Assembly (NCBI GenBank): GCA_041494705.1
Contig: JBGQBI010000001.1
Coordinates: 120,001 to 152,000, forward strand
Direction: 5' to 3'
Length of the DNA stretch: 32,000 bases
DNA from: Candidatus Methanoperedens sp.
Lineage (GTDB): Archaea; Halobacteriota; Methanosarcinia; Methanosarcinales; Methanoperedenaceae
Both the position numbers and the translations under genes were made by a program. The first letter of the stretch is position 1. The number at the start of each line of letters is the position of its first letter. Below the pieces are notes generated by a model that worked only from the letters and a program-made list of their open reading frames with translations, was not told the DNA's origin and did not search any database. Below are positions 26,564-27,787 of the stretch, piece by piece.

Positions 26564-27787
26564 TTAAAGCAAATGTTGTACTTGCTCCGCTGCTTTTTTT
26601 CCAGAGGATATGGCGGCTGACATCCCATATGGCATGAGATGGTGGCTATCCACATGAGTATAGTCACCCGCTAAAAAAACGCGCTGTGACGGAAGTATTT
26701 TTTCTATAGCCCAGGCACCATAACTTTCCTCCGAAATAATCGGGCTAATCATGTCCCAATGATGATGGTCGGCAAATTTTATTTGTTCCTCCCTAAAGTT
26801 GCCAAAACCCAAAGCATCAAGAGTTTGCAACGCCATTTTCACCATTTCTTTTGCATGCAATTTACGCACAGGTACGGATTTAATTCCCATGAAGTAAAAG
26901 TATAACAATACCAGACCATCAACAGCCGTTTTCTGCTGCACAACGGTACTGGTAGCAAGATCCGGGGTAGCAATGTACGAAAACTCAGGAATTAGGTTTT
27001 CCGGTATTGCTAAAACGCACAGGCTTCCTGTGCCGTAACGAATTCCATCCAAAAAAAGTCTGCTGGGGCTTTCTGCACGGGCGATAACGCGAGATGCTTC
27101 ATGGGCTGGTATCGAGCAAATAACGGCCTTTGCAGAAAGGTGCTTAATTTGCCCCCCTTCATTGACAGTAACAACAACATTTCGTCCTTGATCATCGATA
27201 CTAAGTACCTGCACCCCGCAACGAAGCCGCGATGATATACCTTCAATCAAGCCAGCAATCAACGCTCCATTGCCGGTTTCATAATGTCCCATCTGAAATA
27301 CTTGAAAGGCATCAAGCCTCCTTTGAGGAATATATTCACCTATCTCACCAGGGTGAATCAACTGAAAAAAAGCATTTAACAACTCGTACGATGGCGGCGA
27401 AAGGTCGAATATATCATATGCGCCTCCATTGACAAAAGCAGTAATCTCTTCGATCTCAAGGTTTCGAAAATCAATTTTTTCAAGACAATCCACAACACTT
27501 TTGCCAAACCAGGTGCGTCCTTTCGAACAGACTCCAATCATGCCATATTCTTCGATTAGTGGTGGTGGAGCGATTCCGGTCGGCAAGGATGTCGGTTCAA
27601 TAGCAAAAACTGCTCCGATTTCATAGCTTACTCCCATTTTCTCACGGGTAAGCACGCGCCCTCCGGCATTCGTTTTTAGTTCAAGCACGATAATGTCTTT
27701 ATCACGCAATGCGTATGCCGCGTAAAGCCCGGCCAGTCCGGCGCCGACAACTATTACCTCCTTGCATTCGTCTTGAAATCTTTCCAT
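26564..27787 (-). CDS. flavin-containing amine-oxidase-family oxidoreductase (last gene of the RiPP-like operon)
   Basis: 407 aa. The N-terminal dinucleotide-binding motif VIVVGAGLAGLYAAYAL is followed by ELKTNAGGRV, and the C-terminal VFLAGDYTH motif is typical of the amine oxidase/PPOX/phytoene desaturase superfamily. Confidence 0.8.
   Translation of the reverse strand: MERFQDECKEVIVVGAGLAGLYAAYALRDKDIIVLELKTNAGGRVLTREKMGVSYEIGAVFAIEPTSLPTGIAPPPLIEEYGMIGVCSKGRTWFGKSVVDCLEKIDFRNLEIEEITAFVNGGAYDIFDLSPPSYELLNAFFQLIHPGEIGEYIPQRRLDAFQVFQMGHYETGNGALIAGLIEGISSRLRCGVQVLSIDDQGRNVVVTVNEGGQIKHLSAKAVICSIPAHEASRVIARAESPSRLFLDGIRYGTGSLCVLAIPENLIPEFSYIATPDLATSTVVQQKTAVDGLVLLYFYFMGIKSVPVRKLHAKEMVKMALQTLDALGFGNFREEQIKFADHHHWDMISPIISEESYGAWAIEKILPSQRVFLAGDYTHVDSHHLMPYGMSAAISSGKKAAEQVQHLL

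Follow-up and report, generated by a model that had tools for sequence, protein, structure and literature searches.

A stand-alone MppD-like flavoenzyme in a Candidatus Methanoperedens peptide cassette and its possible role in tailoring prenylated tryptophan

What does a flavoenzyme of the amine-oxidase family do at the end of a gene cassette that encodes a short peptide and a radical SAM/SPASM maturase? The question is raised by the window, the whole 32,000-nucleotide stretch of Candidatus Methanoperedens sp. DNA that was analysed, in which four genes lie on one strand in the order precursor, radical SAM/SPASM enzyme, LynF-type prenyltransferase and flavoenzyme. A first-pass annotation had proposed, by analogy with the maturation of quinohemoprotein amine dehydrogenase (QHNDH), that the flavoenzyme oxidises a Trp of the precursor to give a quinone or another peptide-derived redox cofactor. 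The genes of the cassette are as follows:

26564..27787, minus strand: FAD-dependent oxidoreductase with the amine-oxidase (FAO, PF01593) fold, a stand-alone member of an MppD-N-domain-like subfamily (Pfam, NCBIfam, structure model, tree, alignment, dN/dS)
27799..28617, minus strand: LynF/KgpF-type ABBA peptide prenyltransferase, DUF5838 (PF19156 66 bits over cut-off; TIGR04445 below cut-off; PDB 8ye0, E 4.9e-22)
28639..30072, minus strand: radical SAM/SPASM maturase (CxxxCxxC at 137-144, eight C-terminal Cys)
30226..30405, minus strand: 59-aa precursor (invariant C50, C53, G56 and C-terminal W59)

The flavoenzyme is, as first described, the last gene of the operon: its 407-aa reading frame (26564-27787, minus strand) starts 11 nt (27788-27798) past the stop of the DUF5838/LynF-like gene and is the final conserved one, with genes that vary among related loci downstream. 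Comparison of related loci showed no exporter or protease to be part of the cassette, and promoter and terminator scans of the locus gave chance-level results. Purifying selection acts on the flavoenzyme gene, with dN/dS of 0.22-0.42 versus six archaeal orthologues. Close orthologues occur in Ca. Methanoperedens and other Methanosarcinales with a patchy distribution, namely in 8 of 48 further genomes from the same genus and in 2 from outside the family (284 searched). The same cassette is present at locus L174 and, with an extra IPP-isomerase-like NUDIX gene, at L012. The cassette looks mobile because its GC3 (0.38-0.43) is below that of the flanking genes (0.50-0.55) and the flanks are not the same from genome to genome. 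A 114-aa ORF of low GC3 (0.34) at 26143-26487 of the window (minus strand) lacks conservation among related loci and recalls a transposase remnant; it has no Pfam or plasmid match. The PF01011 match in the genome is a 439-aa repeat protein encoded elsewhere than the cassette.

The flavoenzyme matches PF01593 (Amino_oxidase) with 72.9 bits (cut-off 19.8) and also matches PF13450. The structure matches of its AlphaFold model (pLDDT 91.7) all belong to the amine-oxidase superfamily, at 12-20% identity. The best are MAO 8p84 (Z 36.0, rmsd 2.9, 384 aligned) and the LAAO-like 7eme (Z 36.0); others include PPOX (Z 32.6), VioA 5zbc (Z 30.7, rmsd 3.0, 358 aligned), PDS (28.4) and CpaO (23.8). No named NCBIfam family is reached over its cut-off: the best match, HpnE, scores 49 bits of the 283 needed, CrtI scores 23 of 238, and HemY TIGR00562 scores 41.6 against a cut-off of 97.85 through residues 9-59 alone. 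A housekeeping PPOX or CrtI identity is rejected on these cut-offs, the patchy distribution and the cluster context; the enzyme is a dedicated member of its cluster.

A profile search (E<1e-30) defined a flavin family of 261 representatives. In a quick IQ-TREE analysis, 66/66 family rows fall on one side of a branch with 100% SH-aLRT support and a length of 0.96. The family thus forms its own clade with respect to 53 outgroup rows (CrtI-, HpnE-, PDS-, MAO- and LAAO-like), which include true CrtI and HpnE, both outside the family, but no true VioA, RebO, StaO, HemY or QhpG, so that the tree does not place the latter enzymes. A metagenome scan with a generic Rossmann motif returned unrelated amine oxidases, which were used as tree outgroups only. 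Cyclase fusions make up 38 of 159 family representatives, and one protein of 1042 aa (P0075) joins three domains: ATP-grasp-like, flavin and cyclase. Signal or lipoprotein-like N-termini are seen in P0039, P0064, P0083, P0112 and others and at L117 and L179, and P0092 and P0143 carry an N-terminal membrane domain; such members, with no RiPP genes seen nearby, possibly have another function.

A link to a described cluster comes from a Moorena locus (L102), which encodes a 716-aa flavin-cyclase fusion whose N-domain aligns with the flavoenzyme over 405 aa, gap-free, at 37% identity (E 9e-92). The same locus carries LanM, a halogenase-like gene and a Nif11 precursor ending in CWRWSG, the MppE core; because of this ending and the matching gene content, it is an mpp-type cluster. 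Its prenyltransferase neighbour corresponds to MppC, a proven Trp-C5 geranyltransferase (PMC12715784), while mppD of the Moorena producens mpp lanthipeptide cluster has been annotated merely as a terpene synthase (PMC11791876). The flavoenzyme resembles MppD in its homology over the whole flavin domain, in its clade and in the prenyltransferase adjacent to it (DUF5838, 11 nt upstream), as MppD has a Trp prenyltransferase adjacent in a RiPP cluster. It differs in that the class II cyclase fused in MppD is neither fused nor adjacent here, the 407-aa flavin domain standing alone in a cassette without a cyclase. The mpp cluster, moreover, combines MppC with LanM, in contrast to the LynF-type prenyltransferase and SPASM enzyme of Methanoperedens. 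Since profile comparison revealed no similarity between LynF-like and MppC-like prenyltransferases, the label MppC-like, as used below, rests on the match of L102 to the published cluster.

The company kept by the flavin family was surveyed in 26 GTDB loci outside the archaeal cassette, which are partly kin (three from Sorangium, two from Synergistaceae, two from one MAG) and give counts rather than a test. A prenyltransferase lies within two genes in 21/26 (15 MppC-like, 6 UbiA) and a small class II terpene cyclase is fused or adjacent in 20/26, whereas the window-type SPASM enzyme was found in 0/26. The five loci that have no near prenyltransferase comprise two that end inside the gene, two with short upstream flanks and L117, which has no prenyl gene. 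The family occurs beside LanM with NHLM-type transporters in one context; with P450s, MppC-like and cyclase genes in Streptomyces; with DMATS, UbiA, IspG and IspH, where no radical SAM gene is present; and with YcaO and a cyclase. IPP-isomerase-like NUDIX genes lie near some members. Wherever an NHLP/Nif11 precursor was detectable (12 bacterial loci), the core contains Trp, C-terminal in 8 and internal in 4, mpp being one of the 4. The flavin family is associated with prenyl genes and is independent of the SPASM enzyme. The quinone or redox-cofactor product envisaged at first loses its footing here, as the flavoenzyme goes with prenyltransferases and terpene cyclases and not with that enzyme.

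Several loci of the family merit individual mention. In Streptomyces, a 35-aa acidic peptide ending in Trp (L009:4995-5102) is a candidate precursor that lies upstream of P450s, an MppC-like gene, a flavoenzyme and a cyclase. Myxobacterial loci L099-L101, L107 and L108 pair UbiA with flavin-cyclase genes, with no precursor detected, and are candidate meroterpenoid clusters. At L104:11730-13200 the MppC-like gene is seemingly split across frames.

The reverse comparison started from the SPASM enzyme. Beside its homologues at 43-53% identity, the precursor persists along with a protein of 281-325 aa, which has an ExSxK motif in common with the window prenyltransferase and a predicted structure resembling ABBA/DMATS prenyltransferases (TM about 0.72). 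The fourth gene of these sister cassettes is a small cyclase (L127, L129, L148, L149, L151) or a NUDIX isomerase (L126). The flavin family was matched in 0/59 Methanosarcina genomes, and in five Methanosarcina genomes, four of them with the sister cassette, the search for it returned Rossmann-motif matches only. Position four is thus occupied by a prenyl-related gene, and the SPASM enzyme has no obligate tie to the flavoenzyme. The first-pass annotation had named clustering with housekeeping PPOX or carotenoid desaturases, together with a lack of co-conservation with the radical SAM gene, as unfavourable to its own proposal; the NCBIfam scores and the separate clade show no such clustering, and the lack of co-conservation is what was found.

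The precursor (30226-30405) ends in EECSSCANGWHW, in which Glu, Cys and Trp are all present, as first noted. Over 16 distinct cores C50, C53, G56 and W59 are invariant, W57 is replaced by A, M or S, and Glu is not conserved, acidic residues appearing at shifting positions. Because of this shifting, QhpD-type Cys-Asp/Glu thioethers receive no support, and the QhpD analogy fails on the variable Glu that it needs. The conservation pattern points to W59 as the probable common prenyl acceptor in the cassette family, with W57 and H58 as further possible sites in this subgroup. Structural relatives of the window prenyltransferase are 8ye0, the best match (E 4.9e-22), SmiF, FjoF, LimF and PagF; KgpF prenylates Trp at C3 (PMC5331326). 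Two tandem precursors at L095:6918-7352 differ by a single core residue (CEQC versus CAQC). A variant cassette (L150:1-5352) has CHDIC spacing in the core; upstream, a cyclase-like gene lies on the other strand.

In the LAAO and MAO enzymes, a Lys near flavin N5 serves O2 activation, an Arg binds the carboxylate and Tyr residues form the amine cage. The snake LAAO Lys aligns to L256 of the flavoenzyme, and Lys occurs here in 0/158 family rows. The LAAO carboxylate-binding Arg position (after the DxGA-type motif), set against LAAO-like metagenome proteins and not VioA, is F61, with Arg in 0/155 rows. In place of the MAO GYM motif stands YGM (G388 in 152/155), the GCY loop is deleted, and the MAO cage Tyr occurs in 0/155 rows. 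Residues H145, Y152, N173, Y271, Y298, Y376 and Y387 are family-specific. With other residues in the Arg, Lys and cage Tyr positions, the pattern speaks against a free-amine oxidase and fits an enzyme that dehydrogenates C-H bonds, reduces or isomerises, as those of the PPOX, CrtI and HpnE branches do. The missing oxidase residues also suit the many anaerobic hosts of the family, which include Sporomusa, Desulfobulbus, Synergistaceae and Methanoperedens, the last a strict anaerobe. The kinship first drawn to the L-Trp oxidases VioA, RebO and StaO is therefore not upheld: the fold is common to these enzymes, LAAO and MAO, but identity is 14-20%, the flavoenzyme lacks the cage Tyr as well as the Arg and Lys found in L-amino-acid/Trp oxidases, and Trp59 has no free alpha-amine. 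A complex prediction of the flavoenzyme with precursor and FAD scored 0.12, a value that weighs neither for nor against an interaction.

The explanation that we favour, with somewhat less than even confidence, is FAD-dependent hydride abstraction (-2 Da) from a prenylated Trp unit, which leads to desaturation or, as with CpaO, to ring closure and uses something other than O2 as acceptor. The cassette product would be a cross-linked, prenylated RiPP. The SPASM enzyme would cross-link the CxxC-containing core and the LynF-type enzyme would prenylate a Trp, for which Trp59, invariant and C-terminal, is the most likely residue; the flavoenzyme would then act on the prenyl-indole unit as an FAD dehydrogenase. 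The hydride would be taken from an indole-activated CH2, either prenyl C1' or Trp C-beta, or, if prenylation takes place at C3, from the pyrroloindoline C-N bond instead. The outcome could be a conjugated diene, a new ring as in CpaO, or an amidine, and the electrons would pass to an acceptor other than O2. The substrate, the redox direction, the acceptor and the order of steps are all what we infer. Gene context cannot separate oxidation from reduction or isomerisation, nor a peptide from a prenyl-diphosphate substrate. That some family members (L110, L117, L179) carry signal peptides and have no prenyl genes nearby also sits uneasily with the scheme.

The best mechanistic model is CpaO (beta-cyclopiazonate oxidocyclase; PDB 9kp8), a flavoenzyme of PF01593 that acts after an indole prenyltransferase, taking a hydride from a prenyl-Trp substrate (PMC13003489). 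However, CpaO is a fungal, O2-using enzyme with a covalent histidyl-FAD and a small-molecule substrate. It is a precedent and not a close relative or structural neighbour of the flavoenzyme (Z 23.8, rmsd 5.0, 363 aligned, 15% identity; rank 39, versus 36.0 for the best MAO/LAAO rows). A second parallel is offered by the prenyltransferase-cyclase RiPP maturases NctPC/ChrPC, in which, according to the review PMC13290415, a RiPP Trp is prenylated and the isoprenoid is then tailored; a small class II cyclase is found in the sister cassettes and in the flavin-cyclase fusions. The review describes no flavin domain for these systems, and the Methanoperedens cassette differs in having no cyclase. The wider prediction, that of an amine-oxidase subfamily tailoring prenylated aromatics without O2 and of a RiPP from archaea that a radical SAM enzyme cross-links and whose terminal Trp undergoes prenylation followed by oxidative ring closure or desaturation, akin to the indole-alkaloid chemistry of CpaO, is possible but, taken as a whole, doubtful.

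The prenyl unit may also be the target of chemistry in the opposite direction, in which reduced flavin saturates or isomerises a double bond or quenches a cation (+2 or 0 Da), as in HpnE, retinol saturase and CrtISO. The prenyl-gene context is equally compatible with such a role, as are the missing O2 Lys and the numerous anaerobic hosts, and HpnE is the top NCBIfam match, though far below cut-off (49 versus 283 bits). Yet the cassette has no co-conserved reductase partner, the nearest folds are oxidases and dehydrogenases, and the HpnE row falls outside the flavin family in the tree, and we consider this route unlikely, if worth keeping in mind. A modification of the prenyl diphosphate donor before its transfer, so that the prenyltransferase installs an altered isoprenoid, would account for the variety of prenyltransferase folds accompanied (UbiA, DMATS, LynF, MppC-like) and for the donor-supply genes nearby (IDI-like NUDIX, IspG, IspH). 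Class II cyclases, some of which act on diphosphates, are among the matches of the fused cyclase domain as well. The probability of this sequence of events nonetheless appears low: the family alignment has no standout conserved basic cluster for a diphosphate, plain GPP is accepted by MppC (PMC12715784), and prenylation precedes cyclisation in NctPC, according to the review PMC13290415.

Two further possibilities place the reaction on the Trp itself. Oxidation of Trp59 independent of prenylation would yield dehydro-Trp (-2 Da) or, through oxidative decarboxylation, a vinyl-indole enamide (-46 Da). The invariant C-terminal W59, the 8/12 bacterial precursor loci that end in Trp and the hydride abstraction at Trp C-beta by CpaO (PMC13003489) are in its favour. 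We rate it improbable, though a little less so than prior alteration of the donor, given that Trp is internal in 4/12 loci, mpp included, that some family members belong to UbiA clusters in which no precursor was detected, that about a quarter of representatives have a fused terpene cyclase, and that the carboxylate-binding Arg is missing. The earlier suggestion that Trp59 becomes a quinone-like or dehydro product thus holds in part, Trp59 being invariant and a likely part of the substrate and a -2 Da change plausible; the quinone is the part that falls away. QhpG-like hydroxylation of a Trp, giving (cysteine-)tryptophylquinone or another peptide-derived redox cofactor, would explain why a SPASM enzyme, Cys, Trp and a flavoprotein share a cassette, a likeness to QHNDH, and BhaC1 is a flavoenzyme that turns a C-terminal Trp into a hydroxyquinone (PMC9850906), although it is an unrelated FMN/TPR protein. 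This idea, which is very improbable, fails on context, core conservation and the need for O2. No constant link joins the flavoenzyme to the SPASM enzyme, and the acidic core residues change places. A monooxygenase of halogenase-like type, QhpG acts on QhpC and inserts oxygen (PMC7876137), whereas the host is anaerobic. The best structure matches of the flavoenzyme model are all of amine-oxidase type; that QhpG (7CTQ) is not among the top 50 does not exclude a resemblance to it. No cofactor-using enzyme is co-conserved near the cassette, and relatives are found in clusters with peptide exporters. Genome-wide Pfam searches for QHNDH components, run with no or weak positive control, gave no matches. 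The absence of an exporter and protease, once read as fitting an intracellular cofactor, gives no support to the QHNDH analogy because the qhp operon carries both (QhpE and QhpF) in addition to QhpA/B (PMC7876137), none of which is in the four-gene cassette.

In the searchable literature neither this cassette nor an activity of the flavin domain was found described; the product of the mpp cluster is still cryptic, and the MppD-type flavin half has no assigned function there. Tailoring of prenylated RiPPs is already known in kind. What is new is the stand-alone, cyclase-free archaeal form of the flavin domain and the swap of flavoenzyme and cyclase within one cassette family. The cassette isolates the flavin step in three or four genes, with the flavin domain alone, one short precursor and one soluble prenyltransferase, and the Methanosarcina sister cassette, with a terpene cyclase in place of the flavoenzyme, is a natural control. 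If true, the favoured explanation would extend RiPP chemistry by a step that tailors prenyl groups, and archaea that oxidise methane anaerobically would be credited with a further natural-product pathway; the finding has no bearing on new redox cofactors.

The sister cassettes (L129:6665-10514, L127:6734-10397 and, in Methanosarcina, L148, L149 and L151) consist of a precursor (CxxCxNGxxW), the SPASM enzyme, a divergent ABBA prenyltransferase and a stand-alone class II cyclase, and they are candidates for a terpene-cyclised archaeal RiPP; the SPASM protein carries the name Methanosarcina thermophila in one source. Remoter SPASM homologues (34-36%) at L152 and L153, the latter a split copy, lie outside any such cassette and adjoin CRISPR Cmr-like genes.
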